Assembly (NCBI GenBank): GCA_964479005.1
Contig: CAYZJA010000002.1
Coordinates: forward strand, 128,001 to 192,000
Direction: 5' to 3'
DNA length: 64,000 nucleotides
Source: an uncultured Candidatus Saccharibacteria bacterium
GTDB lineage: Bacteria; Patescibacteriota; Minisyncoccia; UBA6257
The position numbers and the translations under genes are program-made. How positions within the stretch are numbered: position 1 is the stretch's first letter; each line of letters opens with the position of its first letter. Below the pieces are notes generated by a model. That model had not been told where the DNA came from. It did no database searches and saw only the letters and a program-made list of their open reading frames with translations. This document shows, in pieces, positions 5,228 to 49,875 of the stretch.

Positions 5228-6269
5228 AACAGCTCAAAATATAGATATTTCCTGGCAGAGCATTTTACGGCTTTATGTTATTTTATTGGTTTTTATCGCA
5301 GCTTGGTACTTTAGGCAGGCTATTTTTATTATTTTACTTGGTTTTATTGTAGCTTCGCTTTTGGATAGGCCAATAGATTATTTTGAAGAGAAGTGGAAAA
5401 ATCGTTGGCTGGCAACTTTTATCATTTATTTTATCTTTTTAAGTGTATTAGGATTGATTGCTTATTTATTTATTCCAGTTTTTAATAATTATATAGTTGG
5501 GTTTTTAGATTTTTTCCCATCATGGATGAATAAAGGAGCCTTTCTTCAACTATGGCAAGGATGGCAATCTGTAGAATTTCCAATGCAAAATTGGCTAAGT
5601 TTGTTAGGTATTTCCCAGGGACAATTATCAGAATTTTTGCTTCAGTCTGGTAATTTGCTCACCAAGATTTTGGGAGGAGCTTTTTCTGCTTTTTTTGTTC
5701 TTCTTTTGTCTTTTTTTATTAATACAGAAAAAAAAGGAATAGAAAAAGCAATTCGTTTGATTTTTCCAAGCGCTTATGAAGATTACGCGGTTTATCTTTG
5801 GGGAAAAACACGCCGTAAAGTTGGAAGTTGGTTTTTTAGCCAATTAATTCTTAGTTGTATAGTTGGGAGCTTGGTTTTTATTAGCCTAAAAATGTTAGGA
5901 GTTCCTCAAGCTGAATTTTTAGCAATATTAGCTGCTCTATTTGATTTTATTCCATATGTAGGCCCTTTAATTATTGGTTTTGTAGCATTCTTAGTTGGAA
6001 TAAGTCAAAGTTTATTCCTGGGAATTTCAATACTAATTATTTTTATTATCATTCAGGCCATTGAAGGTTTTATCGGCCCATTATTGCGGGCTAAAACAAT
6101 GAAATTAAATCCATTGGTAATTATTTTAGCTGTTTTAATTGGTGGAAAATTAGCTGGAGTTGCCGGGATTATTATTGCTTTACCATTAGCAGCAGCCGCA
6201 ATTGGGTTGATTAGGGATATCCAAACAGGTCGCATCACTGCTTATTTACCACAGAAACAGCTTTTATAA
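5220..6269 (+). CDS. AI-2E family transporter (PerM/UPF0118 membrane protein)
   Basis: Multi-TM protein with typical AI-2E topology. Start moved to the ATG at 5220 (ATGTTTAA overlap with the upstream stop). The 5178 ATG lies inside the upstream gene. Confidence 0.7.
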   Translation: MFKTAQNIDISWQSILRLYVILLVFIAAWYFRQAIFIILLGFIVASLLDRPIDYFEEKWKNRWLATFIIYFIFLSVLGLIAYLFIPVFNNYIVGFLDFFPSWMNKGAFLQLWQGWQSVEFPMQNWLSLLGISQGQLSEFLLQSGNLLTKILGGAFSAFFVLLLSFFINTEKKGIEKAIRLIFPSAYEDYAVYLWGKTRRKVGSWFFSQLILSCIVGSLVFISLKMLGVPQAEFLAILAALFDFIPYVGPLIIGFVAFLVGISQSLFLGISILIIFIIIQAIEGFIGPLLRAKTMKLNPLVIILAVLIGGKLAGVAGIIIALPLAAAAIGLIRDIQTGRITAYLPQKQLL

Positions 6270-6286
6270 AATAGCCCCATCTGAAT

Positions 6287-7279
6287 ATGGTGAACATTTT
6301 AATTTCCAAAATTGATTTAAAAAATCTATATTTAGATAAAAAATTAACTACTTATGATATAGCTAAATTTTATAATTGTTCTCAGGGAACAATATGGAAA
6401 AGATTAAAAAGATTTAATATAAAAACGAGATTTTCTTGGAATGAGGTCAACCTTTCTAAGAAAAAACTGAGGGATTTATATACTAAAGATAAATTATCTA
6501 CTTGGCAGATAGAAAAGATTTTGAAAATACCTAGGAGTACAATTTATAGAAAACTTATAGATTATAATATTCCTGTAAGAAATCTGGCGCAGTCTCATAT
6601 TATTTATCCACGAAAGAATTTTAATGGAAACAAAACAGAAAAGGCTTATCTTATGGGTTTTGCAATTGGGGATTTAAGAGTAAGAAAAATATATAAAAAT
6701 AGTGAAACAATTCACATTGATTGTGGCTCTACTAAGAAAGAACAGATAAAACTTATATCAGATTTATTTAAACCTTATGGAAGGGTTTGGATTAGTAAAC
6801 CCAATAGGATAAAAGCTGTTCAAATAGAGTGTTCTGTCAATAATTCTTTCGGTTTTTTGCTAGAAAAGAAGAAATTTTTAGATAACTGGATTTTAGCTAA
6901 CAAAAGATATTTCTTTTCTTTCTTAGCAGGTTTTACTGATGCTGAAGGATGTATTTCAGTAACGTCAAAAGGACAAGCTTTCTATTCTTTAGGAAATTAT
7001 AATGATACACTCTTAAAACAAATAAGGGATAGACTCATTCGATGGGGAATAGAGGTGCCGAAACTTACTAGAAGCCGGACACATTTAGGGTATATTACTA
7101 AAGAGGGCTATACGATTAATCATATTTATTGGATACTGCACATTAATAGAAAACAATTCCTTCTGTTATTATTTGATTTAATGGGCCCGCATCTTAAGCA
7201 TTTTGCAAAAATTCAGGGGTTATTAAAGGCTCAAAAAAATATAGAAGAAAGAAATAAAAAAATTTTTAATTTAAAATGA
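6287..7279 (+). CDS. Free-standing LAGLIDADG-family (double-motif) endonuclease-like protein with two N-terminal HTH repeats
   Basis: Two LAGLIDADG-like motifs (LMGFAIGDLRV and FLAGFTDAEGCIS). They are preceded by two ~35-aa HTH-like repeats (TTYDIAKFYNCSQGTIWKRLKRFNI and STWQIEKILKIPRSTIYRKLIDYNI). Confidence 0.65.
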   Translation: MVNILISKIDLKNLYLDKKLTTYDIAKFYNCSQGTIWKRLKRFNIKTRFSWNEVNLSKKKLRDLYTKDKLSTWQIEKILKIPRSTIYRKLIDYNIPVRNLAQSHIIYPRKNFNGNKTEKAYLMGFAIGDLRVRKIYKNSETIHIDCGSTKKEQIKLISDLFKPYGRVWISKPNRIKAVQIECSVNNSFGFLLEKKKFLDNWILANKRYFFSFLAGFTDAEGCISVTSKGQAFYSLGNYNDTLLKQIRDRLIRWGIEVPKLTRSRTHLGYITKEGYTINHIYWILHINRKQFLLLLFDLMGPHLKHFAKIQGLLKAQKNIEERNKKIFNLK

Positions 7280-7316
7280 AACATAAATAAATATAATTTT
7301 CAAAAATAAACTTTTT

Positions 7317-8801
7317 ATGTCTAAACATTGCATTTATATTTCTACTGCTATTGATTATCCTTCTAACAAGCCTCATCTTGGGCATGCTTTAGAAAAAATT
7401 CAAGCCGATGCTTTAGCGCGTTATTTTAGGTTCCAGGAGAAAGAAGTGTATTTTAGTACTGGGACTGATGAACACGGGCTTAAAATTCAAAAATGTGCAG
7501 AGAAAGCAGAAAAAACGCCTCAACAATTTGTTGATGAAATGGTTAGTTATTTTAAGAATCTTGATAAGGTTTTAGATATTTCTTACGATGATTTTATTAG
7601 AACGTCTGAGTCACGGCATATAAAAGTAGTAGAAGAGATAATTAAGAAAATCTATCAAAAAGGCGATATCTACAAAGGCAGATACAAAGGTTTGTATTGT
7701 ATGGAATGCGAAACTTATTATTTGCCAAAAGACATTCCAGAAGGGAAATGCCCTGTTCATCATTTGATGTTAGAGCAGGTTGAAGAAGAAACATATTTTT
7801 TCAAAATGGGCAAATATAAGGAGGAAATATTTAAACATATTCAAGAGAAATCTAATTTTATTATGCCTGAAAACAGAAAGAAGGAAATTCTGAATCGCCT
7901 TTCTGAACCTATTCAGGATTTAAGTATTTCTCGTAAAAATGTTAAATGGGGTATTCCTTTACCTTGGGACAAAGAGTTCACTTTGTTCGTTTGGGTAGAC
8001 GCTTTGATTAATTATTTATCTACTCTAGATTATTCGAAAGAAAGGTTTAAAAAATTTTGGTCGGATCAAAACGAAGTCTACCATATAATCGGGAAAGATA
8101 TTATTTGGCATCATAGTGTTATTTGGAGCAGTTTATTGCTTTCAGCTGGCTTACCTCTGCCTAAAACTATTTTTGTTCATGGTTTCATTACTGTTGAAGG
8201 AGAAAAAATGTCAAAATCATTGGGAAATATTATTAATCCTGTAGAGTTAGTTGAAAAATATGGCGCTGATGTAGTGCGTTATTTCCTTCTTCGAGAGTTT
8301 TCTCCTTTTGAAGATGGTGATTTTTCTGAACAAAGATTAAAGGAGCGTTATAATTCTGATTTGGCACAAGGCTTAGGTAATTTAGTTTCACGCGTCTTGG
8401 CTTTAGGAGAGCAATATGGGAAACAGATAATGGTTCAATGTTTGGATTCCGATTTGATTACTAAGTCTTGGAGCGATTATAAAAAGCAGATGGAAGCGTT
8501 TCGTTTTAATGATGCTTTAGCAACTACTTGGAATTTAATTTCTTATTGCGATAAATATATCAGTGATACGAAACCGTGGGAAAAAATTAGTGATGAAAAA
8601 GAATTTCAGAAAATCTTAGGCGCATTAGTATATATATTAGGTAATATTTCTTTAATGCTTTCTCCGGCAATGCCTAAAACATCTGAAAAGATACTCGAAT
8701 TTCTTAAATTACAAGGTAGATCAAAACAAGATTGGTTGTCACAAAAGGTTTTACTTGAAAAACAACCACCTTTGTTCCCAAAAAAGGAATCACGAAGTTA
8801 A
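7317..8801 (+). CDS. metG: Methionine--tRNA ligase (short form)
   Basis: Class I HIGH-type motif (PHLGHALE) and KMSKS motif (KMSKSLGN). At 494 aa it lacks the C-terminal tRNA-binding extension. Confidence 0.9.
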   Translation: MSKHCIYISTAIDYPSNKPHLGHALEKIQADALARYFRFQEKEVYFSTGTDEHGLKIQKCAEKAEKTPQQFVDEMVSYFKNLDKVLDISYDDFIRTSESRHIKVVEEIIKKIYQKGDIYKGRYKGLYCMECETYYLPKDIPEGKCPVHHLMLEQVEEETYFFKMGKYKEEIFKHIQEKSNFIMPENRKKEILNRLSEPIQDLSISRKNVKWGIPLPWDKEFTLFVWVDALINYLSTLDYSKERFKKFWSDQNEVYHIIGKDIIWHHSVIWSSLLLSAGLPLPKTIFVHGFITVEGEKMSKSLGNIINPVELVEKYGADVVRYFLLREFSPFEDGDFSEQRLKERYNSDLAQGLGNLVSRVLALGEQYGKQIMVQCLDSDLITKSWSDYKKQMEAFRFNDALATTWNLISYCDKYISDTKPWEKISDEKEFQKILGALVYILGNISLMLSPAMPKTSEKILEFLKLQGRSKQDWLSQKVLLEKQPPLFPKKESRS

Positions 8802-8803
8802 TT

Positions 8804-9655
8804 ATGTTTTTTGACTCTCATACACATTTAAATTTAGTTGCTTTTGACAAAGATAGAGAAGAAATAATAAGAAAAACCCTGGAACAGGGTATTTTTGTAA
8901 TTAATATAGGAACTTGCTATGAAACTTCTAAAAAAGCAATAGAAATTGCTCAACAATATGAAAATTGTTGGGCTACAGTAGGGTTACATCCTAGCCATAC
9001 AATACCAATGAAAATTGATAAAAGTGAATTAAAGATAAGTAGCAAGGAGGATGTATCAGAAGCAGAAGTTTTTAATGAAAAATTTGAATCACTTTTAAAA
9101 GAAGCCTTCAACTTTGCTCAGGGCAGGCCCAAAGTAGTAGCTATTGGTGAGTGCGGATTGGATTATAGTTATTTGAAAGATTTTTCTGGAAAGGATCAAA
9201 TAAAGTATGCAAAGATGGAAGAGGAAGAGTTTAGAAAACAAATTCAAGCTGCCAAAAAATATAATTTACCTTTGTCTCTACATATACGTGATTTATATGA
9301 AAAAGCCTTAATAATTTTGGAAGAAGAAAGATATAAGGGCGAGGCAGTATTCCATTTCTTTACTGGTAAAGTGAATCAGGCGCAAAAGATTTTAAAAAAA
9401 GGATTTTATTTAGGTTTTTCAGGTATCATTACATATTCAGAAATAATGAATGATGTTATTAAAAACGCACCGCTTGAGAAGATATTAATTGAAACAGACG
9501 CTCCTTACGTAGCACCAGTTCCTTATAGAAGCAATAGAAACGAGCCAATCTATGTAAAGGAAGTAGCTAAAAAAATTGCCCAGATAAAAAAACTTCCTCT
9601 AAAAAAGATAGAGGAAGCTACATTTAAAAACACTTTGCGACTTTTTGGAATATAA
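8804..9655 (+). CDS. tatD: TatD family metal-dependent hydrolase/DNase
   Basis: N-terminal FDSHTHL motif with ...GECGLDY and ...ETDAPY signature regions. Confidence 0.85.
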   Translation: MFFDSHTHLNLVAFDKDREEIIRKTLEQGIFVINIGTCYETSKKAIEIAQQYENCWATVGLHPSHTIPMKIDKSELKISSKEDVSEAEVFNEKFESLLKEAFNFAQGRPKVVAIGECGLDYSYLKDFSGKDQIKYAKMEEEEFRKQIQAAKKYNLPLSLHIRDLYEKALIILEEERYKGEAVFHFFTGKVNQAQKILKKGFYLGFSGIITYSEIMNDVIKNAPLEKILIETDAPYVAPVPYRSNRNEPIYVKEVAKKIAQIKKLPLKKIEEATFKNTLRLFGI

Positions 9656-9702
9656 TTTCAAAGGCCCGGAAATATTATTTCATTGTTTAACAATTAGCAA
9701 AT

Positions 9703-9781
9703 AGTAAGGCGAGAAGAGGTTGTTGAAAAAAACTATAGCGATTAGCGTGTTTTTGAAATAACCTCTTCTCGCCTTCTTACT
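9703..9781. terminator. Long inverted repeat between convergent tatD and rnj (candidate bidirectional terminator)
   Basis: Arm AGTAAGGCGAGAAGAGGTT at 9703-9721 is near-perfectly complementary to AACCTCTTCTCGCCTTCTTACT at 9760-9781. No clean T-run follows. Confidence 0.45.
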
Positions 9782-9786
9782 ATCAT

Positions 9787-11490
9787 CTAGACTTCAATGA
9801 CAACTGGCAATACCATTGGGCGGCGCTGTGTTTTTTTAAACAGGAATAAACCTATCTCATTTCTTAAATTATTGCGGATATAACCTTCATTGAATGTATC
9901 TCCTTTTGTTGAACGGCTTACAATTTCCCTCACTAATTTTTTCGTTTGATTTATCAATTCTTTTGATTCTTTCATATAAACAAATCCTTGAGAAATAATT
10001 TCGGGATTATTATAAAGTAGTCCTGTTTTTCTATCCACCAAAGCAATGATGATAAAAATTCCATCCTTGGAAAGGGTTTGTCTTGCTCGAAGAACCACTT
10101 CTTTAATATCCCCCACACCTAATCCGTCAACCATTATATAGTTTGTAGGAACAAATTTTTCTGTTGCTGTTATTTTATTTTTAGTTAATTCAATTATTTG
10201 GCCGTTTGCTCCTGTTACAATATTTTGTTTGCCGATACCCAAGGATTCTGCTATTTCACTATGGAGTTTTAACATAGAAAAATGGCCGTGAATAGGCATA
10301 AAGAAATGTGGCTTGGTGAGATTAATCATCATCTTTGAATCATCTTGATAGCCATGCCCAGAAGAATGAATATCAACCATTTTATAGTGGTAGATATTAG
10401 CGCCTTGTTTTGCCAGATTGTCTTTTAGGTTTTGAACAGCCAATTCGTTTCCCGGAACAACAGAGGAAGAGAAAATAACGGTATCTCCTTTTTGTATCCT
10501 TAAATATTTATGTTCTCTATTCACTATTCTCATTAAAGTGGCTTCACTTTCACCTTGCGCGCCAGTACATAGTATTGTTAGCTTTTGCGGGTCAAGCCGA
10601 CTTGCTTCTTTCCAGTTGATTATAGTTCCTTTTTTAACACTTATGTATTTTAGTTTTTCCGCAATAGCTAAATTAGTTTTCATAGCATAACCTTGAATAA
10701 CAATTTTGCGATTATATTTTTCTGATAGCCAAATAGCTTGCTGAAGCCTGTTGATTAATGAAGCAAATGTGGCTAGTATGATTCTTCCTTTTGTTTGCGC
10801 AAAAAGAGTGTCTAAATTATCCATTATTGTTTTTTCAGAAACAGAATGTCCTGGATTTTCTATTCCAGTTGAGTCGGACATTAGAAGTTGTACGCCTTGG
10901 GAAGCAAGTGTGGCAATCCGTGATAAATCTGCTGGTTTATCACCAATTGGTTGGAAATCAAATTTAAAATCGGTTGCATACATAATTAATCCATGCGGTG
11001 TATTAATGGCTAATCCCAAAGTATCAGGTATGTTGTGGTTTAAATGGAATGGGGAAATTTTAAAAGGGCCTAATGTTGTGGATTTATTTGGGTTTATATC
11101 TTCAATATTCAATTTTTTTAGGCTAGGAAAATCTTCCTGCCTTTTTAAAATTATTCCACGGGTTAAAGGCGGGGCATAAATAGTGGGATAATTTAATTTA
11201 TTAATTAGATAAGGTATGGCTCCAATGTGGTCATAGTGGGCATGAGTGATAAAAACCCCTAATATTTTTTTCTCTGGATGGCTTGTTAAGTATTCAATGT
11301 TAGGAATAATAAAATCAATGCCCGGCATATCTTCATCAGGAAACTGTAGCCCCATATCTACAATCAGGACCTGATTCTCGTATTCAAAAAGAGTCATATT
11401 GCGGCCAATTTCTTCCAATCCTCCCAAAGGAATAATTTTTAATGGGGTTGTGGACGTTTTTGTTTTTTTATAAAATTTTTTACGTTCCAT
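9787..11490 (-). CDS. rnj: Ribonuclease J (metallo-beta-lactamase/beta-CASP RNase)
   Basis: HAHYDHIG metallo-beta-lactamase motif and beta-CASP region. Start placed at MERKKFYKK. The upstream 19 codons of the listed ORF lie over a hairpin/leader. Confidence 0.85.
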   Translation of the reverse strand: MERKKFYKKTKTSTTPLKIIPLGGLEEIGRNMTLFEYENQVLIVDMGLQFPDEDMPGIDFIIPNIEYLTSHPEKKILGVFITHAHYDHIGAIPYLINKLNYPTIYAPPLTRGIILKRQEDFPSLKKLNIEDINPNKSTTLGPFKISPFHLNHNIPDTLGLAINTPHGLIMYATDFKFDFQPIGDKPADLSRIATLASQGVQLLMSDSTGIENPGHSVSEKTIMDNLDTLFAQTKGRIILATFASLINRLQQAIWLSEKYNRKIVIQGYAMKTNLAIAEKLKYISVKKGTIINWKEASRLDPQKLTILCTGAQGESEATLMRIVNREHKYLRIQKGDTVIFSSSVVPGNELAVQNLKDNLAKQGANIYHYKMVDIHSSGHGYQDDSKMMINLTKPHFFMPIHGHFSMLKLHSEIAESLGIGKQNIVTGANGQIIELTKNKITATEKFVPTNYIMVDGLGVGDIKEVVLRARQTLSKDGIFIIIALVDRKTGLLYNNPEIISQGFVYMKESKELINQTKKLVREIVSRSTKGDTFNEGYIRNNLRNEIGLFLFKKTQRRPMVLPVVIEV

Positions 11491-19127: not shown

Positions 19128-19202
19128 TGGTGCCTGGGCGGTGAATCGAACACCGGACGCTTTGCTCTTCAAGCAAACGCTCTACCACTGAGCTACCCAG
19201 GC
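19128..19202 (-). tRNA. tRNA-Phe (GAA), CCA encoded
   Basis: Reverse complement gives GCCTGGGTAGCTCAGTGGTAGAGC-G-TTTGC-TTGAAGA-GCAAA...GGTGTTCGATTCACC...CCCAGGC-A-CCA. Confidence 0.85.
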
Positions 19203-19274
19203 TTAAACTCAGATTACCAGTTTAGCATAATAGATTTTTAAAGTAAAGAAAAGCAATAAATCCAAATAAATTAG

Positions 19275-19348
19275 TGGGCAGTAGAGGACTCGAACCTCTG
19301 GCCTCATGGATGTAAACCAAGCGCTCTAACCAACTGAGCTAACTGCCC
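19275..19348 (-). tRNA. tRNA-Val (TAC), tentative; U-U mismatch in the anticodon stem
   Basis: Reverse complement gives GGGCAGTTAGCTCAGTTGGTTAGAGC-G-CTTGG-TTTACAT-CCATG...AGAGGTTCGAGTCCTCT-ACTGCCC-A. Confidence 0.6.
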
Positions 19349-19374
19349 TAATTTTTAGTGGACCACGTCTAATG

Positions 19375-19452
19375 TGGTGGACCCAGTGGGAGTCGAACCC
19401 ACGACCTTGCGCATGCCATGCGCACACTCTAAACCAACTGAGCTATGGGCCC
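19375..19452 (-). tRNA. tRNA-Ala (GGC), G3:U70, CCA encoded
   Basis: Reverse complement gives GGGCCCATAGCTCAGTTGG...TGCGC-ATGGCAT-GCGCA...GTGGGTTCGACTCCCAC-TGGGTCC-A-CCA. Confidence 0.85.
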
Positions 19453-40301: not shown

Positions 40302-41351
40302 TTATTTGTTTTTAATGTAGTTTCCTCCATCTGTATTTTTAATAAACTCTTTTAATTCTAAAGTAGTGAGAATAACAAGAGTCTCTTTAGGGGAAAGATT
40401 AGAGATTTCTATAATTTTGTCAATAGCAAGAGAATTTTCCTTAGGCAGAAGTTGGTAAATTTTTTCTTCTTGTTTATTGTCAAATTTTAAGCTTGGAGAG
40501 TCTTTTATTATTGGTAAAGTATATTGAATATTTAATTCTTCAAAAATATCTTCAATTTGGGAAACTAACTTTGCCCCTTGCTTAATCAAATTATTGGTTC
40601 CAATAGAGTTCTTATTGAATATTGAGCCGGGAATAGCAAAAACCTCTCTGTTTTGTTCTAATGCAAATTGCGCAGTGATTAAAGCACCGCTTTTCTCCGG
40701 AGCCTCTATTACCACAGTAGCCAAAGAAAGACCGCTGATTATTCTATTGCGCCAAGGAAAGTAACGCCTTAAAGCAGGAGCTTCTAAAGGATATTCAGTA
40801 ATTATCGCGCCATGTTTGGCTATTTCTTTGGATAATCTTTTATTGCTATAAGGATAGATATTGTTTAATCCTGATCCTAAAACAGCGATTGTTTTTCCTT
40901 GGTTTTCTAAAGCAGATTTATGGGCTATAGTATCAACGCCATAAGCTAGACCGCTTACGATAATAAAATTATGACGCGTTAATTCTTGTACTAATTTTTC
41001 TGTAACCAATTTTCCGTACGCGCTTATTTTTCTTGTTCCAACAATGGCTATACGCGGCGCTTCTTCAGGAATTTCTCCTTTAATATAAAAAGATGAAGGA
41101 GAATAAGATATTTCTTTTAATAAGTCCGGATATTTATTATCCGAAGAAATAATAAAACCAATCTTTTGTTCTTCTATTTCTTGCCATTCTTTATAAGGAT
41201 CAATATCTTCTTTTTGGCTAACGCTTAATTTTTCCCAAGCGCTTTTAAAAGTTTGGCTGGAAGATAAAAGAGGAAATAACTTAAGGAAGTTATTTTTAAA
41301 AGCTACGTTAAGGGCATTCAAATAAATCTTTTCTTCATGGTGGGGCATCAT
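40302..41351 (-). CDS. dprA: DNA processing protein DprA/Smf
   Basis: Rossmann-like DprA core (GLAYGVDTIAHKSALENQGKTIAVLGSGL) and a C-terminal winged-helix-like tail. Confidence 0.85.
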   Translation of the reverse strand: MMPHHEEKIYLNALNVAFKNNFLKLFPLLSSSQTFKSAWEKLSVSQKEDIDPYKEWQEIEEQKIGFIISSDNKYPDLLKEISYSPSSFYIKGEIPEEAPRIAIVGTRKISAYGKLVTEKLVQELTRHNFIIVSGLAYGVDTIAHKSALENQGKTIAVLGSGLNNIYPYSNKRLSKEIAKHGAIITEYPLEAPALRRYFPWRNRIISGLSLATVVIEAPEKSGALITAQFALEQNREVFAIPGSIFNKNSIGTNNLIKQGAKLVSQIEDIFEELNIQYTLPIIKDSPSLKFDNKQEEKIYQLLPKENSLAIDKIIEISNLSPKETLVILTTLELKEFIKNTDGGNYIKNK

Positions 41352-41427
41352 ATATAAATTATATCACAGCATTATTATTCTGTCATTTTTATTGTTTTTT
41401 CCTTAATGTTGAGATATACTAAATCTA

Positions 41428-41961
41428 ATGGGAGATTTCAAAAAGAGATTAATTTTAATTCTAAGCATTTCCCTATCTATCATTTTAGTCCTTGGTGGAT
41501 TATTTTATTATTTTTACGATGATGTTTCGAAAAGAGTAGTAAAGATTAATTCCTACAGGCAGGAACTTGCTTCCCGAGCGTCAATTCTAAACAGGATTTA
41601 TGTATTAGAACAAGAACATACAAAATCCTTGCCGTATTTTGGAAAATTGACAGAAGCTTTGCCAACTGAAACAGAAATGGTTAACCTAGAAGAAGTTTTG
41701 AAAAATTTAGCCAGTCAAAATGATCTAAATTTAAGCTTTCGATTCGGACTGTTAAACGAAGCAACTGAACAAGAGCCAAAGAGTTATAGTTTCAATTTAA
41801 TTCTTACAGGAGAGAAAAACAATGTTTTAAAATGGATGGATGGTTTGCAGAAATTAAATTATACAATTCGCGTGGACCAAATAGAATTAAGCCAAACCAG
41901 TTCTGGCGGAGGCAAATTTTATTATAGTGTAAAAATTTTAGGAAGAGTTTATCTTCGTTGA
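41428..41961 (+). CDS. Hypothetical bitopic membrane protein (PilO/GspM-like fold possible)
   Basis: N-terminal TM helix; no motif. Confidence 0.4.
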   Translation: MGDFKKRLILILSISLSIILVLGGLFYYFYDDVSKRVVKINSYRQELASRASILNRIYVLEQEHTKSLPYFGKLTEALPTETEMVNLEEVLKNLASQNDLNLSFRFGLLNEATEQEPKSYSFNLILTGEKNNVLKWMDGLQKLNYTIRVDQIELSQTSSGGGKFYYSVKILGRVYLR

Positions 41962-41971
41962 GAATCTAAAT

Positions 41972-42187
41972 ATGTTTAAAAAGATTTACCAAAACTTAAA
42001 AAAGAAAAATTTATTTTTTTTGGCTGGAGGGTTAGTAATTATTATTGCTTGCGGTTTTCTGATAGTTTTTAGTTTGACTTTTTTAATAAAAAATATTAAT
42101 TTTGTATTAAAGCCAATTGCTCCGGAAAACTCTTCAATACATTTTGATATTTCTGAAGCAGAAAGGTTGTTTTTGCAAGATAAATAG
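41972..42187 (+). CDS. Small hypothetical membrane protein
   Basis: 71 aa with one TM helix. Confidence 0.3.
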   Translation: MFKKIYQNLKKKNLFFLAGGLVIIIACGFLIVFSLTFLIKNINFVLKPIAPENSSIHFDISEAERLFLQDK

Positions 42188-42194
42188 TTTTTAC

Positions 42195-42266
42195 GGGCGA
42201 CTAGCTCAGTGGTAGAGCGCGTCTCTGATAAAGACGAGGTCACAAGTTCGATCCTTGTGTCGCCCA
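42195..42266 (+). tRNA. tRNA-Ile (GAT)
   Basis: GGGCGAC-TA-GCTC-AGTGGTA-GAGC-G-CGTCT-CTGATAA-AGACG-AGGTC-ACAAGTTCGATCCTTGT-GTCGCCC-A. Confidence 0.85.
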
Positions 42267-42281
42267 CAATTTTCCTCCATC

Positions 42282-42357
42282 GGGCCCGTAGCTTAATTGG
42301 TAGAGCGCCTGTGTTGCATACAGGAGGTTGTCGGTTCGAGTCCGATCGGGTCCACCA
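42282..42357 (+). tRNA. tRNA-Ala (TGC), G3:U70, CCA encoded
   Basis: GGGCCCG-TA-GCTT-AATTGGTA-GAGC-G-CCTGT-GTTGCAT-ACAGG-AGGTT-GTCGGTTCGAGTCCGAT-CGGGTCC-A-CCA. Confidence 0.85.
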
Positions 42358-42488
42358 CGTTAGACGTGGTCCACCACGTTAAACGTGGTGGACTTCAAAA
42401 TTTCTCCTTGCTTGACTAAGCTATATCTTATATAATAGAAGTATAAAAATTAAAGGTCGATAAAACTAAAATTTAAAATATAAAAAAT

Positions 42489-43172
42489 ATGTTTAATACT
42501 ATAGCTCAAGCTAGTTCCACTGCTTTGTTTGATTTATGGAATGGATTCATTTTGTTTTTACCTACTTTAATAGGAGGGTTTATAGTTTTTATTGTAGGTG
42601 TAATAATTGGTAATGGTATTGCCCAATTAGTAGAGAAATTGATTGATCTCTTAAAAATTGATCCAATTTTGGAAAAGGTTGGATTTAAACAAGTTACTGA
42701 TAAAGCTGGCATTCGTTTAGACGTAGGATTTTTTGTAGGTCAGATTGTCAAGTGGTTAATTATCCTGTCGTTCTTAGTGGCTGCTTGCAATATCTGGAAT
42801 TTGTCAGCTGTTGGTGATTTTATCAGAAGCATAGTTAATTATCTTCCAAATGTTTTAGTCGCGATCTTGATTCTTTTAGCGGCTATTGTTTTGGGAGAAT
42901 ATTTTGCTAAGTTTGTCCGCGCTTCTGTCGCAGGAGCTGGATTAAAATATCAGCACTTTCTAAGCGGTGTATCCCGTTGGGTATTTGTTATATTTGGACT
43001 CATAGCAGCTTTATCTCAATTACAAGTTGCTCCTTATATTATCAATACCTTCTTTACGGGAATTGTGGCTATGATGGCAATAGCCGGAGGTTTGTCATTC
43101 GGTTTAGGAGGAAAAGATTTAGCACGTGAATTATTGGCAAAGTTGAAAGGAGATTTAGAAGGAGGAGAGTAA
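42489..43172 (+). CDS. Membrane protein with two conserved-TM-helix repeats (MscS-like TM_helix type, tentative)
   Basis: Two similar halves, each with paired TM helices. No cytoplasmic MscS domain. Confidence 0.45.
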   Translation: MFNTIAQASSTALFDLWNGFILFLPTLIGGFIVFIVGVIIGNGIAQLVEKLIDLLKIDPILEKVGFKQVTDKAGIRLDVGFFVGQIVKWLIILSFLVAACNIWNLSAVGDFIRSIVNYLPNVLVAILILLAAIVLGEYFAKFVRASVAGAGLKYQHFLSGVSRWVFVIFGLIAALSQLQVAPYIINTFFTGIVAMMAIAGGLSFGLGGKDLARELLAKLKGDLEGGE

Positions 43173-43175
43173 GAC

Positions 43176-43203
43176 TTGACAAATTATTTTTCTTTGCTAT
43201 AAT
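43176..43203 (+). promoter_or_regulatory. Sigma70-type promoter P1 (TTGACA-16 nt-TATAAT) upstream of 23S
   Basis: Consensus hexamers read directly from the sequence. Confidence 0.6.
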
Positions 43204-43287
43204 GGAAGTGCTGTTGTCTTGAGGTATATAGCTTGCTATATATTAAAGGGCAGCAGCATTTTTTTATACACAAAACTCAATAAGGGG

Positions 43288-43315
43288 TTGACTTTTAAAA
43301 AATATTTACTATAAT
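43288..43315 (+). promoter_or_regulatory. Sigma70-type promoter P2 (TTGACT-16 nt-TATAAT) upstream of 23S
   Basis: Near-consensus hexamers read directly. Confidence 0.55.
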
Positions 43316-44129
43316 TAAAATACTTCTATTTTAATTGCAACGTTCTTGATTTATAATCAGAAAGTTGCAATAATAAGAAGGCTGAATAAAATATGAAAAT
43401 CTTTAAAGAAAACTCTCAGAAACAAAGAAGTTGGTAGGTGTATTACACACGTATTTTAACGCCACCACTTCATGGTGGCTTTTTTAATCCAAGATTTTCT
43501 GACAGAGAGTTCACAAGAGATGACTGAACTTTGAAAACGACTGTCTTTAGTTTGTCTTTTCACTAAAGATGGGAAAGTTGTATTAAGGGCAGATGGTGGA
43601 TGCCTTGACACAGTAAGGCGATGAAGGACGCGGCGTAGCTGCGATAAGCCTCGGGAAGGTGCGTAGTAACCTTTGATCCGGGGATTTCCGAATGGGGCAA
43701 CCCATTCCGATTAATATCGGAATATCCTGATTTTAATAATTAGGAGGCGTACCTGGGGAAGTGAAACATCTCAGTACCCAGAGGAAAAGAAAACAATAAA
43801 ATACATTTTACTACTGTTGTTTAGTACTGAATAGTAGCTAAATGTATTTGTGATTCCTTGAGTAGCGGCGAGTGAAAGAGGAGAAGCCTAAACCAAGCAT
43901 TCAATTTATTGAGTATTTGGGGTTATAAGGTGGATGCGCGGAAGCTTCGGCTTTCAAAATTTAAATCATAATTAATTAAATTATCTGGAAAGATAAACCA
44001 CAGAGGGTGAAAGTCCCGTAGATGAAAATTATTATTGAATTTAGTATCTTTTCTTAATTACCTCGGGGACAGATAACCTTGAGGGAAGGATCCGGAACTA
44101 TACCGGAAAGGCTAAATACTTACTGTGAT

Positions 44130-44175
<46 letters not shown>

Positions 44176-45733
44176 GAGGGGAGTGAAATAGAACCTGAAA
44201 CCATTTTGCCTACAAGCAATCGAAGTCGAGCACTCAGTTTTCTGAGTGCTGGATAACGGTGTGCCTATTGAAGAATGAGCCGACGAGTTTATATCTACTG
44301 CTTAGATTAATTTCGTAAATCGAAAGTAGTCATAGGGAAACCGAGTGTTAATAGCGCGTCATTAATTCTTCTTTTTATCTCGGTTTTCGGGATAAAAAGA
44401 TTAATTAAAATGTAGTGGATATGAGACCCGAAGCCAGGCGAGCTTGCCATGACCAGGATGAACCCCATAGAAATATGGGTGGAGGTCCGAACCCGTGAGC
44501 CGTTCAATACTCTGGGATGAGTTGTGGTAAGGAGTGAAAAGCTAATCGAGCCTGGGAATAGCTGGTTCTCCCCGAAATAGCTTTAGGGCTAGCGGGCTAT
44601 TTATCCTTATGGGGGTAGAGCACTGGATGGTGTGTATAGGGCGAAAGCTCAGCTCACCAATCAAACTCCGAATACCATTAAGGTTATGATAGCCTAGTTA
44701 GACTATGGGGGCGAAGCTCCATGGTCAAAAGGCAACGAATCCAGATCGCAGTTTAAGGTCCCTAAATTTTGGTTAAGTGCTGTCAAAGGTAGTAATTTAC
44801 CATAGACAATTAGTAGGTTGGCTTAGAGGTAGCCATCCTTTAAAGAGTGTGTAACAACTCACTATTCGATCTTGATCTTCGGATCAAGGTGGTAAATTGC
44901 GCCGAAAATGTATCGGGGCTAAAACCAAATACCGAAAACGCGAATTTATCCCAACTAAGGTTGGGGTGAGTGGTAGGGGAGCGTTTCTTAAGCATTGAAG
45001 TTCATAACGTGAGTTTGGATGGAGCTTAAGGAAGTGAGAATGTCGGCATGAGTAACCACAATCCTGATGAGAATTCAGGACTCCGTAAACCTAAGGTTTC
45101 TTTGGCAATGACAATCAGCCAAAGGTTAGGCGGTCCTAAGGCAATGGCGAAAGCTGCAGCCGATGGACAGCCGGTTAATATTCCGGCCCTTCCATTTTTT
45201 TCGATGGGATGACGGAGTGTAGTAGATCGAGCATCTTAGTGGTCTGATGTCTTCGACCGAGAGTGTGTGTCAGGCAAATCCGGCGCATGGTCCCGATTTA
45301 TCGGGACAACTTTCAGGGTAGAAGCGAATTAAGGTTTTTCCTTAATAAGTTGATCGAGCGCACTTCCAAGAAAAATCTCTAAGAATAGGAAAATGGAATC
45401 CGTACCGTAAACCAACACAGGTAGGTGAGGCGAGTAGCCTCAGGAGAACGAGTGATTCCTCGTTAAGGAACTCGGCAAAAAAGCGGGCGTAACTTCGGGA
45501 TAAGCCCTTCCTACCTAAATTTTGCTTGCAAAGTTTAGGCAGGGCGCAGCGAAAGTTTCCCTGGCGACTGTTTACCAAAAACACAGGTCCCTGCGAAACC
45601 GTAAGGTGATGTATAGGGGCTGATGCCTGTCCGATGCCAGAAGGTTAAGAGCGTCGGTCATTTCGATTTATCGGAATGGCTAAGTGCTTGAAGCCCTGGT
45701 CAATGACAGCGATAACTATAATCGTTCTAAGGT

Positions 45734-46449
45734 GGGATACTGCCTTAGTAAAATTCGGCTATATGCTGGAACATCTGGTGTATCCAAGACTACTATGGTA
45801 TAATATGACCATAAAAATATGAGTTATAATATACCAAGTAACAATGTTTTTGGCGCAGACAATCAGCAGGAAAGACTCAGAATTGCTTATTGGATTTTAG
45901 GCTTTACTGATGGTGAAGGATGTTTTTCAATTGCTGTGATAGAGAACAAAACTACTAAATTTGGGAAACAGATTTTTCCTGAATTTGTAATTACACAAGG
46001 AGAAAAAAGTTTAACTGCATTAAAGAAAATTAAAAAATTCTTTGGTTGCGGAAACATTTTTATCAACAAACGATATGATAATCATAATGAGAACTTATAT
46101 CGTTATTGTGTACGTTCTTTACATGACTTAGATAAGAAAATAATTCCGTTTTTTGAAAAATATCAACTCCAAACGTATAAGCAAAATGATTTTTTAATTT
46201 TTAAAAAAGTCATAAAATTCATGATAAAGAAAGAACATTTAACTGAAAAAGGCAGAAAGAAAATTCTTGTCCTCCTCAGTAAAATGAACCATAGAAAAAA
46301 GCGATTTTGAGAATCCTCAGAGACTATATGCCGAACTCCAATATTATATTGGAGAAGATATAGTCCGAACTGCATAGCGATATGCAGAAATAAGCAGAAA
46401 TGTTTATTCGACCTTTAGATTGATTTTCTAGAGGTTAGTAACAAAATTG
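45734..46449 (+). mobile_element. Group I intron in 23S at the I-CeuI-type site (E. coli ~L1923; ...CTAAGGT^AGCGAAATTCC...)
   Basis: Exon sequence resumes exactly with AGCGTAATTCCTTGTCGGGTAA. The intron follows an exon U and ends with G. Confidence 0.75.
45819..46310 (+). CDS. Intron-encoded single-motif LAGLIDADG homing endonuclease
   Basis: LGFTDGEGCF motif. 163 aa, entirely inside 23S intron 1. Confidence 0.8.
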   Translation: MSYNIPSNNVFGADNQQERLRIAYWILGFTDGEGCFSIAVIENKTTKFGKQIFPEFVITQGEKSLTALKKIKKFFGCGNIFINKRYDNHNENLYRYCVRSLHDLDKKIIPFFEKYQLQTYKQNDFLIFKKVIKFMIKKEHLTEKGRKKILVLLSKMNHRKKRF

Positions 46450-47110
46450 AGCGTAATTCCTTGTCGGGTAATTTCCGACGTGCATGAAAGGTATAACGAC
46501 TGGGGAACTGTCTCAACGAGGAGCTCGGTGAAAATGCGTGTCCAGCGAAGACGCTGGGTACCCGCAGCAAGACGAAAAGACCCTAGAAGCTTTACTACAG
46601 CTTGGTATTGAATTTAGTTTTAATCTGCGTAGCGTAGCGGGGAGACTTTGAAGTTTCGCTTTCGGGCGAGATGGAGTCGCCAATGAAACACCCGTCTTTT
46701 TGAAGCTATGTTCTAATCCCGACGGCAAAAACGTCGTGAGACAGTGCCTGGTGGGTAGTTTTCGTGGGGCGCGATCCTCCTAAAGAGTAACGGAGGAGCC
46801 TACTAAGGTTGGCTATCTGCCAATGGAAACGGCAGAGGTAGTGTAAAGGCAAAAGCCAGCTTTATAGTGAGGGAGACATCCCAAACTATTGCGAAAGCAG
46901 AGCTTAGTGACCCGATACGTCATTGTAGAATGCGTAGAGACGTCGGATAAAAGCTACTCTAGGGATAACAGGCTGGTGGAGCCCGAAAGTTCATATCGAC
47001 GGCTCCGCTCGGCACCTCGATGTCGGCTCATCTTATCCTGGGGCTGAAGAAGGTCCCAAGGGTTTGGCTGTTCGCCAATTAAAAAGATACGCGAGCTGGG
47101 TTCAGACCGT

Positions 47111-47838
47111 CGATTTGGCGGCCTAGAAGAGTAATCTTCTATGGAAAAAGTTGACTCATATAGATGAAACCCTATTACATAAATTGTATTTTAACCTGTC
47201 GTGTGGTAGGATAATATCTAGGGAAGTTTAACTTTTTTAAACGTGAAACATCTTTCAAAGACTCAATGTGCTTATATCGCTGGGTTTTTAGATGGTGACG
47301 GAAGTCTTTATATTAGGATTAAACCTAATAAGGATTATCGGTTTAACTATCAAATAGCCCCCAATATAGTATTTTATCAATCCCAAAAAGGATGGTTATT
47401 TCTTCAGAAAATTAAAAAAATGATTAGCGCTGGTTATATGAGAAAAAGAAATGACGGGATTGCAGAATATATTATTGGTGATGTAGCAACAATGTCTTCT
47501 TTGTTGAAGCAAATATCTTCATTTCTGATATTTAAAAAGAAACAAGCACAATTGTTTCTAAGAATTCTTCAAAAGAAAACAAAGGTAAAAACAAAAGAAG
47601 ATTTTATAGCTTTAGCTATAATGATTGATAAATTGGAAAAATTAAATTATTCCAAAAAAAGGCGCATTACTTCGCAAGTTGTTATCAACACGTTAAAAAA
47701 GTTGTAACCCCTTAGAGACTTGTTCTGGTTTTTACCAGAACGGAATAGAGATTTTTAATCTCTATTAATACGTCAACCTCCTAATAAAATATTAGGATGA
47801 TGGTATAGTCCATACATAAAGTAATTTATGATTATATG
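47111..47838 (+). mobile_element. Group I intron in 23S at the I-CreI-type site (E. coli ~L2593; ...ACCGU^CGUGAGACAG...)
   Basis: Exon sequence resumes with CGTGAGACAGGTCGG. The boundary has a 2-nt ambiguity (CG duplicated). Confidence 0.75.
47243..47707 (+). CDS. Intron-encoded single-motif LAGLIDADG homing endonuclease
   Basis: IAGFLDGDGSL motif. 154 aa, inside 23S intron 2. Confidence 0.8.
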   Translation: MKHLSKTQCAYIAGFLDGDGSLYIRIKPNKDYRFNYQIAPNIVFYQSQKGWLFLQKIKKMISAGYMRKRNDGIAEYIIGDVATMSSLLKQISSFLIFKKKQAQLFLRILQKKTKVKTKEDFIALAIMIDKLEKLNYSKKRRITSQVVINTLKKL

Positions 47839-47980
47839 CGTGAGACAGGTCGGCCTCTATCTGCTGTGGGCGTTCGATACTTGAGGAGAGCTGATCGCAG
47901 TACGAGAGGACCCGATTGGACGAACCTCTGGTCTACCGGTTGTCCTGCCAAGGGCATCGCCGGGTAGCTATGTTCGGAAG

Positions 47981-48013
<33 letters not shown>

Positions 48014-48175
48014 CACTCCAAGATTAGGTATCGTTTCCCATTTATGGGAGTGAGATTCCTGGAAGATGACCAGGTTGATAGGCTCTAGGTGGAAGTCCAG
48101 TAATGGATTAAGCCGAGGAGTACTAATTATCAAAGCAACTTTCCTATCTTTAGTGAAAAGAAATATTTTAAAATT

Positions 48176-48284
48176 CCGCTGGTGTTTTACTTAATTATGG
48201 TCCACCTCTTCCCATTCCGAACAGAGAAGTGAAAGTAATTAAGCCCGATGATACTCTTTTGGGGAAAGTAGGGTATGCCAGCGG
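48176..48284 (+). rRNA. rrf: 5S rRNA
   Basis: CCGCTGGTG...CCCATTCCGAACAGAGAAGTGAAAG...GCCAGCGG with helix I closing, followed by a T-run. Confidence 0.8.
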
Positions 48285-48522
48285 TTTTTTATTTTTAAAT
48301 AAGTATTTCCCCCTTCTCTCCTGCATTCCAGCAGAGACAAACAATATTCACTCGCTCTGGAAGCCTTCCGGAATTTGTTTGTATCTCTGCTTCCATTAAT
48401 GTCGTTCAGGAGCAAATACTTATTTATCTTAATATGTTATTGGTTTAAAAATTAAAAATTGGAAATTTAAAATTATACCAGCGGTTTTTTTATTTGTATT
48501 TCTTATGATATAATAGCTAACA

Positions 48523-49875
48523 ATGGACAAACGATTAAGAAAACAAATTGTTATTGCTTTGGTATTTTTAGGCATTTTTTCGCTTATTGGCGGGGGAATT
48601 TATTTAACTCATCGTTCAGCTCCAACTTGTTTTGATAATAAGCGCAATCAAGGAGAAGAAGACGTAGATTGCGGAGGTCCTTGTATCTTGTGTGAATTAA
48701 AATACAATCCTCCACTTTCTTTAGCTGACTCTCCTGTTTTATTAGTTAATCAAGAAAATAAAGTTGACATCCTTTTTAAAATTACTAATTTAAGCCAGGA
48801 ATGGGGAGCTCAAGAATTTTTTTACAAAGTGATTCTTATAGGATCTAACCAAGAGAAACAAGAATTTATTAAATCTGGATTTATTTTTCCTCACGAGATT
48901 AGATATTTTATAGTTCCTAACATTGCGGTAGCATTTGAACCTTCAGAAGCTGATATAGAAATTTTGACAGAAACAATTGTATGGAATAAGCCATTATCAG
49001 GCATAGATCTTAATTTAGGAGATCCTTTTATTGTTACAAATACTAAAATAATAAAACCCCAGCCTATTCCCGGGGTTGATTATAATGTTTATACTTTTAC
49101 AAAAACTCTTGTATTGGGAATGAAAGATGCAGAAGTTTTTAACCTTCAGAAGGTTCTTCGCCTGGACCCCGCTATTTATCCTGAAGGTGAAGTAACTGGA
49201 TATTTTGGAAAATTAACAGAAGCTGCGGTAAAAAGATTTCAGAAAAAATATGGTATCAGGACTACTGGTCAAGTTGGTCCTCAGACAAGAGCAAAACTTC
49301 ATGAACTCTATGGACCTAGTGATATGGGGCCATTTAGCTATATTTTTACTTTAACTTTAAAAAAAGGGAATCGAGGTAATGAAGTGCTTAACTTACAAAG
49401 GGCGTTAATGTTGGATTCAACAGTTAGTCCTTTAGGCTCTATTACAGGTTATTTTGGGGAAATTACTGAAAAAGCAGTAAAAGATTTTCAGAGAAAATAT
49501 GGTATTAGAATTACTGGTCAAGTTGGTCCATTAACAAGGGATAAATTAAATGAACTTTTTAGTGAACCTCCTGAGACGATAACTGGTTTACCAGGAGAAC
49601 AATTAGAACCTTTTGAAGCCACTTTGGAAGTTAAAGGTGATGTTTATAATAGCACTTCATATAATTGGCGAAATGGAAATATAGCTATAATTCTTTGTGA
49701 TGATAAAAGAAAACCTGTTTCTGTAGGGACGACAGTTTTAGAAGATATTTATTCTGGCAAATCTTCTCAATTTGTTATTCAATGGCACCAGAAATTACCT
49801 GATGATATTACTATTTGTGAGAAAATTACAAATATTAATATTTTAGATGCGGAAAATGTTTTCTTAACTCCTTAG
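48523..49875 (+). CDS. Membrane-anchored protein with two peptidoglycan-binding (PG_binding_1-like) domains
   Basis: Two repeats of ...VxxLQxxL...GxxTGYFGxxTxxAVKxFQxKYGIRxTGQVGPxTRxKL. Confidence 0.6.
   Translation: MDKRLRKQIVIALVFLGIFSLIGGGIYLTHRSAPTCFDNKRNQGEEDVDCGGPCILCELKYNPPLSLADSPVLLVNQENKVDILFKITNLSQEWGAQEFFYKVILIGSNQEKQEFIKSGFIFPHEIRYFIVPNIAVAFEPSEADIEILTETIVWNKPLSGIDLNLGDPFIVTNTKIIKPQPIPGVDYNVYTFTKTLVLGMKDAEVFNLQKVLRLDPAIYPEGEVTGYFGKLTEAAVKRFQKKYGIRTTGQVGPQTRAKLHELYGPSDMGPFSYIFTLTLKKGNRGNEVLNLQRALMLDSTVSPLGSITGYFGEITEKAVKDFQRKYGIRITGQVGPLTRDKLNELFSEPPETITGLPGEQLEPFEATLEVKGDVYNSTSYNWRNGNIAIILCDDKRKPVSVGTTVLEDIYSGKSSQFVIQWHQKLPDDITICEKITNINILDAENVFLTP

Follow-up and report, generated by a model that had tools for sequence, protein, structure and literature searches.

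We analysed a 64,000-nucleotide (nt) stretch of contig CAYZJA010000002.1 (assembly GCA_964479005.1), here called the window, whose coordinates are used throughout, and which holds a ribosomal RNA (rRNA) unit made of spacer tRNAs, a membrane-protein gene, 23S and 5S, and no 16S. With tRNAs called by ARAGORN, RNA families by Rfam and protein families by Pfam, together with the list of open reading frames (ORFs), we found on the plus strand tRNA-Ile(GAT) at 42195..42267 (Rfam tRNA 70.3 bits), tRNA-Ala(TGC) at 42282..42357, 14 nt past tRNA-Ile (65.4 bits), a gene for a 227-amino-acid (aa) membrane protein at 42489..43172, 23S rRNA with two insertions at 43573..48144 (Rfam large-subunit model 1852.9 bits) and 5S rRNA at 48177..48284, 32 nt past the 23S (57.9 bits). 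The original prediction, made from the letters alone, had named the two tRNAs as the canonical tRNAs of a 16S-23S spacer, and ARAGORN and Rfam agree on both. As in a canonical rrn operon, tRNA-Ile(GAU) and then tRNA-Ala(UGC) stand ahead of the 23S and the 5S comes directly after it, but the position directly upstream of the spacer tRNAs is held by a protein ORF instead of a 16S, and the spacer is interrupted between tRNA-Ala and 23S by a 684-nt coding gene, a predicted terminator of a hairpin and seven U residues (U7) and a conserved predicted promoter.

No match to small-subunit rRNA was returned by Rfam in the whole 64-kb window at the gathering threshold or within 41000-49500 at E<=1, and blastn with the Rfam-defined 16S of a Nealsonbacteria relative (L059; relatives are given by locus number) found no 16S in the window. 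A 16S is thus missing from the 42,194 nt that precede tRNA-Ile and from the 15,716 nt that follow the 5S, which bears out both the claimed absence of a 16S and its unlinked state (none for 42 kb on the upstream side and 15.7 kb on the downstream side). The locus is unlinked by either usual standard: the 16S is nowhere within 1.5-2 kb of the 23S, and the genes upstream include minus-strand ones, so that one promoter cannot serve both rRNA genes. Immediately upstream of the tRNAs lie a pilO-like gene of 177 aa (41428..41961, plus strand; Pfam PF04350 PilO, E 5.7e-6), which borders the 16S-less junction upstream, and an ORF of 71 aa (41972..42187, plus strand), called in independent assemblies as well, whose stop codon is 7 nt before tRNA-Ile. 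The product of this ORF is a small hydrophobic protein, probably a single-pass membrane protein, with no match in Pfam or NCBIfam. The original prediction had placed dprA, topA and other genes ahead of the tRNAs; dprA (Pfam), topA and relA/spoT are indeed present on the minus strand, but beyond the pilO-like gene and the 71-aa ORF, which occupy the interval directly before tRNA-Ile. The window has a G+C content of 33%. Since the named homologues of the 227-aa protein are labelled Paceibacterota, Pacebacteria, Parcubacteria or Minisyncoccia, the host belongs in the Parcubacteria part of the Candidate Phyla Radiation (CPR)/Patescibacteria (Paceibacteria).

The 227-aa ORF starts with ATG, and its product, which is helical throughout, matches PF05552 ('MS channel conserved TM helix') in two stretches (E 7.9e-14) and has 345 detectable database homologues. 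Its pairwise ratio of nonsynonymous to synonymous substitution rates (dN/dS) against seven relatives is 0.10-0.13; therefore purifying selection acts on it and the ORF is a real gene rather than a spurious one, and the original prediction, which depended on a coding gene between the tRNAs and the 23S promoters, is upheld on this point. Against NCBIfam NF033912 ('msc') the protein falls short of the cut-off of 100, at 66.8 bits. A profile built from 16 homologues matched residues ~115-203 (118-199 in one PDB profile match) to the transmembrane (TM) region, TM1-TM3, of solved MscS channels in PDB profiles, with E 6e-6 to a 171-aa MscS and about 0.05 to E. coli MscS. The AlphaFold (AF2) model (mean predicted local distance difference test, pLDDT, 79) gave a local Foldseek match to the MscS TM helices of 6vyk_A (probability 0.97, root-mean-square deviation 1.9 A over 92 columns, E-values non-significant), and the whole-protein Foldseek search of PDB gave no significant match and only such local MscS TM ones. 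The cytoplasmic beta-domain or vestibule that defines MscS is absent: there is no PF00924 match in Pfam, the model is all-helical and the protein ends at residue 227. Thus, compared with MscS (PDB 2oau, 6vyk; PF00924, PF05552), the C-terminal half of the protein matches TM1-TM3, but the whole consists of two PF05552-type helical units and nothing else, so that its likeness to MscS is confined to the transmembrane part, and it lacks a feature that defines the family. A channel-like function may be supposed for it.

The signals around these genes divide the locus into three predicted transcription units. In the promoter scan no good promoter was found in front of tRNA-Ile, and because tRNA-Ile follows the 71-aa ORF by only 7 nt, transcription of the tRNAs most likely comes through from the protein genes upstream. 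A 19-nt unit, TCCACCACGTTARACGTGG, stands twice in tandem (42351-42388), starting inside the 3' end of tRNA-Ala (TCCACCA), and this plus-strand element (42351..42391) forms a strong hairpin (folding energy -28.9 kcal/mol, z -6.9) with no good T-run after it; the hairpin may mark where the tRNA unit ends or is processed. The membrane gene has its own predicted intrinsic terminator, a long hairpin followed by U7 (43204..43266, plus strand; -30.5 kcal/mol, z -7.1), which begins 32 nt past the last base of the stop codon, and in the alignment close relatives carry unrelated, non-homologous sequences of hairpin and T-run at the same position. The two near-consensus sigma-70 matches that the original prediction regarded as 23S promoters were both recovered on the plus strand. 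P2 (TTGACT-16-TATAAT, 43288..43315, 11/12) is the predicted promoter of 23S-5S, and its hexamers and spacing are identical in L007, L009, L014, L015 and L016. P1 is a perfect match with an extended -10 (TTGACA-16-(TG)TATAAT, 43176..43203, 12/12), common to the closest relative, L014, only; its function is doubtful because it is placed between the stop codon of the membrane gene and the terminator. Predicted P1 transcripts would begin within the 5' arm of the terminator hairpin.

Downstream of P2, the plus-strand 23S leader contains a conserved hairpin, GCCACCACTTCATGGTGGC, followed by T6 (43461..43485; fold and alignment of relatives), which shows a compensatory change in L007 (GCTACC..GGTAGC) and has analogues in L059 (10857-10883) and L034 (10847-10870). 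This hairpin may be a boxB-like element or an attenuator. It was also considered as a terminator, and this was set aside in favour of a leader element on account of the compensatory change and its conservation in the 23S leaders of all close relatives. A boxA-like motif, GAACTTTGAAAAC, follows at 43526..43538 as a weak pattern match to what we take to be the boxA consensus; such matches occur mainly in close relatives and were not counted as a class-wide feature. Sequences at 43555..43582 and 48134..48162 pair into a leader/trailer stem of 27 bp (-41.8 kcal/mol) that encloses the 23S, as RNase III processing stems do. The T-run GGTTTTTTATTTTT at the 5S end (48283..48296), conserved in L007, is the likely end of the 23S-5S transcript.

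To place the locus among its relatives, we gathered homologues of the membrane gene through exact-sequence look-ups, look-ups of distant homologues and a protein-alignment scan of one genome per species, which gave 85 distinct loci; these were annotated with ARAGORN and blastn against rRNA references, a subset being checked with Rfam. On the strand of the homologue, the 23S follows within 1 kb in 23 loci and after 1-4 kb in 7, no 23S lies within at least 4 kb in 38, and in 17 the contig is too short to judge. Accordingly, the membrane gene stands just upstream of the 23S in 30 of the 68 informative Paceibacteria loci. If a CPR genome has several hundred genes, as we estimate, and one 23S, this proportion is far beyond chance. 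A second group of homologues, away from rRNA genes (L024, L031, L032, L035, L045, L057, L077 and others, including Jorgensenbacteria and Brennerbacteria), often has another conserved neighbourhood, with the pair tRNA-Pro(CGG) - tRNA-Ala(CGC) a few kb upstream.

The 16S of relatives was scored by blastn with the Rfam-defined 16S of L059, plus Rfam checks. A regular-expression search with universal 16S motifs was dropped, as it found a few motifs in L025, L036 and L059 only and missed L034, L042, L046, L058 and L088. In five of the 30 rRNA-adjacent loci (L059, L034, L058, L088 and L046) a 16S is still present on the same strand within 4 kb upstream, and in 17, including the window, there is none within at least 4 kb upstream. 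The complete chromosome of Ca. Nealsonbacteria (L059) shows 16S (7485-8998), tRNA-Ile, tRNA-Ala, the membrane gene (10001-10627), 23S (from 11010) and 5S, and L034 shows 16S, tRNA-Ile, membrane gene, 23S and 5S. The 16S is also linked in L058, with ~1.4 kb from 16S end to 23S start as defined by blastn, and more loosely in L088, with ~5 kb and further genes in the spacer. These four were checked with Rfam, and L046, seen by blastn only, is a probable fifth case. Their layout of 16S - tRNA-Ile - (tRNA-Ala) - membrane gene - 23S - 5S (L059, L034, L058, L088) agrees with the suggestion in the original prediction that the window holds the remnant of a complete operon. L059, L034 and L058 keep everything on one strand within the ~2 kb that defines CPR rRNA genes as 'operonic by tRNAs and ORFs', a group to which the window, having no 16S, does not belong. 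In L042, 16S, tRNA-Ile and tRNA-Ala are followed after 2.8 kb by the membrane gene, with no 23S within 6.4 kb.

Three of these linked operons showed further peculiarities. The 16S of L034 is split by an insertion (Rfam small-subunit matches at 6387-6902 and 7662-8723), and between its 16S and tRNA-Ile lie a LAGLIDADG-like ORF (8940-9434) and a group II intron D1-D4 match (8919-8998). L046 (CAZWYI010000066.1) and L058 (CAZMID010000052.1) come from bins labelled Thermoplasmatales archaeon and Planctomycetia, respectively, while the locus itself is of Patescibacteria type; contamination of these bins by short rRNA contigs is probable.

In a quick neighbour-joining tree of the protein, the rRNA-adjacent genes are concentrated in one large clade that holds the window, and the still-linked operons occupy two separate branches of this clade, therefore pointing to the linked arrangement as the ancestral state. 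The simplest reading is that the membrane gene lay in the 16S-23S spacer of an ancestor and that the 16S separated later in several lineages. Within the subclade of the window (protein identity 65-100%), the junction of pilO-like gene, small ORF and tRNA-Ile is common: a pilO-like gene stands ahead of tRNA-Ile also in L009, L016, L017, L018 and L007, and homologues of the 71-aa ORF hold the same position in L009, L016, L017 and L018. Since the junction is shared across the subclade, the loss of the 16S from this locus must be old. L017 (77% identical; region 5278-9752) has the tRNA-Ile/tRNA-Ala pair and the membrane gene and no 23S within the next 3.8 kb; minus-strand genes and a tRNA-Leu(CAA) follow its membrane gene, which suggests a further rearrangement that detached the 23S as well.

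The intervals between the parts of the unit, from 16S to 23S, have also received other genes in relatives. L007 carries a gene for a 451-aa amidotransferase (GATase) between tRNA-Ile and tRNA-Ala (8370-9725), L009 has one with an RNHCP domain that separates tRNA-Ala from the membrane gene (9404-9865), and in L016, L015, L017, L088 and L042 unrelated genes, from one to several, stand in one or another of these intervals (L016, 8338-9717; L088, 912-2744 and 3928-5059; L042, 906-3510), the inserted products including amidotransferase, RNHCP-domain, SDR-like, methyltransferase-like, PLD-like and other proteins. By this comparison the former 16S-23S spacer appears as an insertion hotspot, and such unrelated insertions fit independent transcription units better than a single precursor. 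For the promoter survey we took the 23 loci with a gap of less than 1 kb between membrane gene and 23S and a threshold of at least 10/12 matches to sigma-70. Every locus has a sense-strand promoter at this threshold (23/23), whereas the reverse strand yields one in 3/23 and shuffles yield 3.75 on average and 9 at most; the loci so surveyed include L034, L046, L058 and L059, in which the 16S is still linked.

Taken together, we consider it likely, with a probability of about 75%, that 42195-48296 is the remnant of an ancestral unit of 16S, tRNA-Ile, tRNA-Ala, membrane gene, 23S and 5S from which the 16S has separated, that it now forms three transcription units and that these were uncoupled before the 16S was unlinked. 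The membrane gene would already have been inside the 16S-23S spacer before the split. Of the three units, the first would be the two tRNAs, made by read-through from the pilO-like and 71-aa genes and ending at the TCCACCACGTTARACGTGG hairpin; the second would be the membrane gene, ending at its own terminator of hairpin and U7; and the third would be 23S-5S, transcribed from P2 through the leader hairpin, processed at the 27-bp stem and ending at the T-run after the 5S. Because the internal 23S promoter is present also where the 16S is still adjacent, we infer that transcriptional uncoupling of 16S and 23S came first and physical unlinking after it, at which point relocation of the 16S would have been harmless and without cost.

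Several points weigh against this history. The promoters, the terminators and the boundaries of the units are consensus or thermodynamic predictions only, the perfect P1 stands upstream of the terminator, and the leader hairpin at 43461 with its T-run could itself terminate transcription. The tree is a quick neighbour-joining tree of a short protein, and the boxA-like motif is confined to close relatives. The homologue is away from rRNA genes in 38 loci, which leaves the ancestry unproven for the class as a whole, and independent insertions or paralogy of the membrane gene retain some small probability. The sequence in view, which comprised the 64-kb window and flanks of 10 kb on related contigs, did not show where the 16S of the source genome lies.

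Other explanations were weighed against the same data. Metagenome assemblies often break at rRNA genes, as the contigs of L001, L002 and L004-L006, which end within the 23S, illustrate, and related contigs sit in wrong bins (L046, Thermoplasmatales; L058, Planctomycetia); the operon might then be complete in the organism, its 16S having been lost or misjoined in assembly or binning. Nevertheless, the identical 227-aa protein occurs on nine contigs, and all six that were read, which stem from independently assembled JGI and Logan samples of one organism, have the order pilO-like gene - 71-aa ORF - tRNA-Ile - tRNA-Ala - membrane gene - 23S. Six assemblies with the same 16S-less junction mean that it is not a misassembly; moreover, the junction is kept in five more distant relatives, the 7 nt between the 71-aa ORF and tRNA-Ile leave no room for a 16S, and the 42 kb further upstream consist of ordinary single-copy genes, which together make an artefact scarcely credible. 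A recent, lineage-specific capture of the membrane gene between the tRNAs and the 23S, after the split, would suit a spacer that is clearly an insertion hotspot (GATase in L007, RNHCP in L009, SDR and others in L016, L015 and L088), but homologues at 40-46% identity stand in the same position, including inside the linked operons L059, L034, L058 and L088, and the gene tree roughly follows the same groups, so that we regard such a capture as very improbable. The original prediction of a protein gene captured inside the spacer holds with a qualification: the gene is real and under purifying selection, but its capture is ancient and common across Paceibacteria and not peculiar to the source genome.

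A less remote alternative is that the membrane gene works as part of the rRNA unit, co-transcribed with the 23S (and with the 16S where linked), processed out of the precursor and kept by a selection that ties its expression to ribosome synthesis. In many named Parcubacteria lineages it has held its place directly upstream of the 23S while the flanks on either side were otherwise reshuffled, it remained with the 23S when the 16S departed, and rRNA antitermination could pass the terminator, a boxA-like motif being present. This motif, however, lies downstream of the promoter and not upstream of the gene; a strong predicted terminator separates the gene from the 23S, with analogous ones in relatives, a promoter follows the gene in 23/23 loci, 38 loci have the homologue away from any rRNA gene, and the ease with which unrelated genes were inserted between the parts argues against a tight unit. 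We therefore hold co-transcription to be unlikely and prefer the remnant of an ancestral operon with three independent units. A bolder extension of that history, which we hold to be doubtful, is that the entry of the gene with its terminator into the spacer forced an internal 23S promoter into being, uncoupled the rRNAs and opened the way to class-wide unlinking, the gene being selectively retained. If this were true, part of the rRNA genes scored as 'unlinked' (internal transcribed spacer, ITS, >1.5 kb) would have a gene-bearing spacer instead, and the membrane gene may stay with the 23S as its expression or its DNA aids the function of the 23S promoter.

Unlinked 16S and 23S genes are widespread, and Patescibacteria are among the clades in which they dominate (Brewer et al., ISME J 2020, 10.1101/705046). 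The distance regarded as unlinked is more than 1500 bp in that study and more than 2000 bp with no connecting same-strand genes in Lui et al. (2021, PMC8172020), who found unlinked rRNA in 27 of 34 closed CPR genomes, including nearly all Paceibacteria genomes in their set at distances of 6.5-256 kb. One Paceibacteria genome is recorded there as 'linked by 1 tRNA, 1 ORF, 1375 bp' (S1 Table, PMC8172020), a layout as in L058 and L034 and a length matched by the ~1.4 kb of L058; homing endonucleases are given as typical spacer ORFs, other ORFs being unnamed, and as to ORF identity the supplement has '1 ORF' entries only. The unit had been called unusual in the original prediction, which is valid against textbook bacteria only, since in CPR/Paceibacteria it is ordinary (10.1101/705046; PMC8172020). 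The window resembles unlinked Patescibacteria/CPR rRNA in that the 23S and 5S stay paired while the 16S is far beyond 1.5-2 kb, a clade-specific pattern that is usual in class Paceibacteria, but the studies of unlinked rRNA (10.1101/705046, PMC8172020) give distances and categories, without the retention of the tRNAs with the 23S, the identity of the ORF or an internal promoter. With the CPR group 'operonic by tRNAs and ORFs' (Lui et al. 2021, Fig 3C, S1 Table) the window shares same-strand tRNAs and a protein gene of the kind found between 16S and 23S, but without a 16S it is a derivative and not a member, and the ORF here is a conserved PF05552 protein. Compared with the E. coli-type rrn (P1/P2, boxB-boxA-boxC, RNase III stems; PMC5179076 and textbook), tRNA-Ile(GAU) and tRNA-Ala(UGC) likewise precede the 23S, and there are predicted tandem sigma-70 promoters, a leader hairpin followed by a boxA-like motif and a long leader/trailer stem around the 23S; in the window, however, the 16S is absent, the promoters lie within the former spacer and a protein gene with its own predicted terminator interrupts the unit.

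The rRNA split and the presence of spacer ORFs in CPR are thus known already, and the window, ordinary for its lineage, leaves unchanged the general picture of split CPR rRNA operons, which are recognized as common. What seems new in detail is that the ORF has a conserved identity, that it stays faithfully with the 23S half and that an internal promoter is universal; no prior description of the spacer membrane gene was found in the literature searched. In Paceibacteria, the unnamed CPR 'ORF in the spacer' is one conserved membrane-protein family, and a 23S with its own promoter beside an adjacent 16S gives a concrete order of events for the break-up of rRNA operons. In practice, distance cut-offs for 'unlinked' will misclassify gene-bearing spacers, and amplicon methods that span 16S-ITS-23S are expected in these lineages to fail or to give products of 2-5 kb. 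Split operons are also a feature of small, reduced genomes such as those of Rickettsia, Wolbachia, Buchnera, Helicobacter and Thermus, where the 16S stands alone and 23S-5S is independent with its own promoter. To our knowledge, these genomes generally have no tRNA-Ile/tRNA-Ala pair before the 23S and no conserved membrane gene there. All five are listed as having split rRNA operons (PMC8172020).

The 23S of the window is itself interrupted by two insertions that are absent from the 23S of L007. Insertion 1 (45734..46449, plus strand, 716 nt) contains a LAGLIDADG endonuclease ORF at 45819-46310 (plus strand; Pfam PF00961, E 1.9e-24), and insertion 2 (47113..47838, plus strand, 726 nt) contains another LAGLIDADG ORF at 47243-47707 (plus strand; PF00961, E 2e-10). 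The insertion points are CTAAGGT|AGCG for insertion 1 and GACCGTCG|(C)GTGAGACAG for insertion 2, which we take to be the classic homing sites of I-CeuI type (~1923) and I-CreI type (~2593), respectively. Insertion 2 gave weak matches to Rfam RF00028 at 47100-47283 and 47717-47831 (32.1 and 22 bits, below the gathering threshold of 50) and is probably a group I intron; for insertion 1 there was no Rfam group I match at E<=1. The 23S end at 47141 reported by Rfam was rejected, as the global alignment was forced across the intron, and comparison with the intron-less 23S of L007 puts the 3' exon at 47839-48144, from which the 3' end of the gene was taken. The same error in the 23S end probably affects L003, L009 and the automated annotation of intron-bearing CPR 23S genes generally. 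Elsewhere in the window, and with no relation to the rRNA locus, tRNA-Phe(GAA), tRNA-Val(TAC) and tRNA-Ala(GGC) are tightly clustered on the minus strand at 19128-19452.

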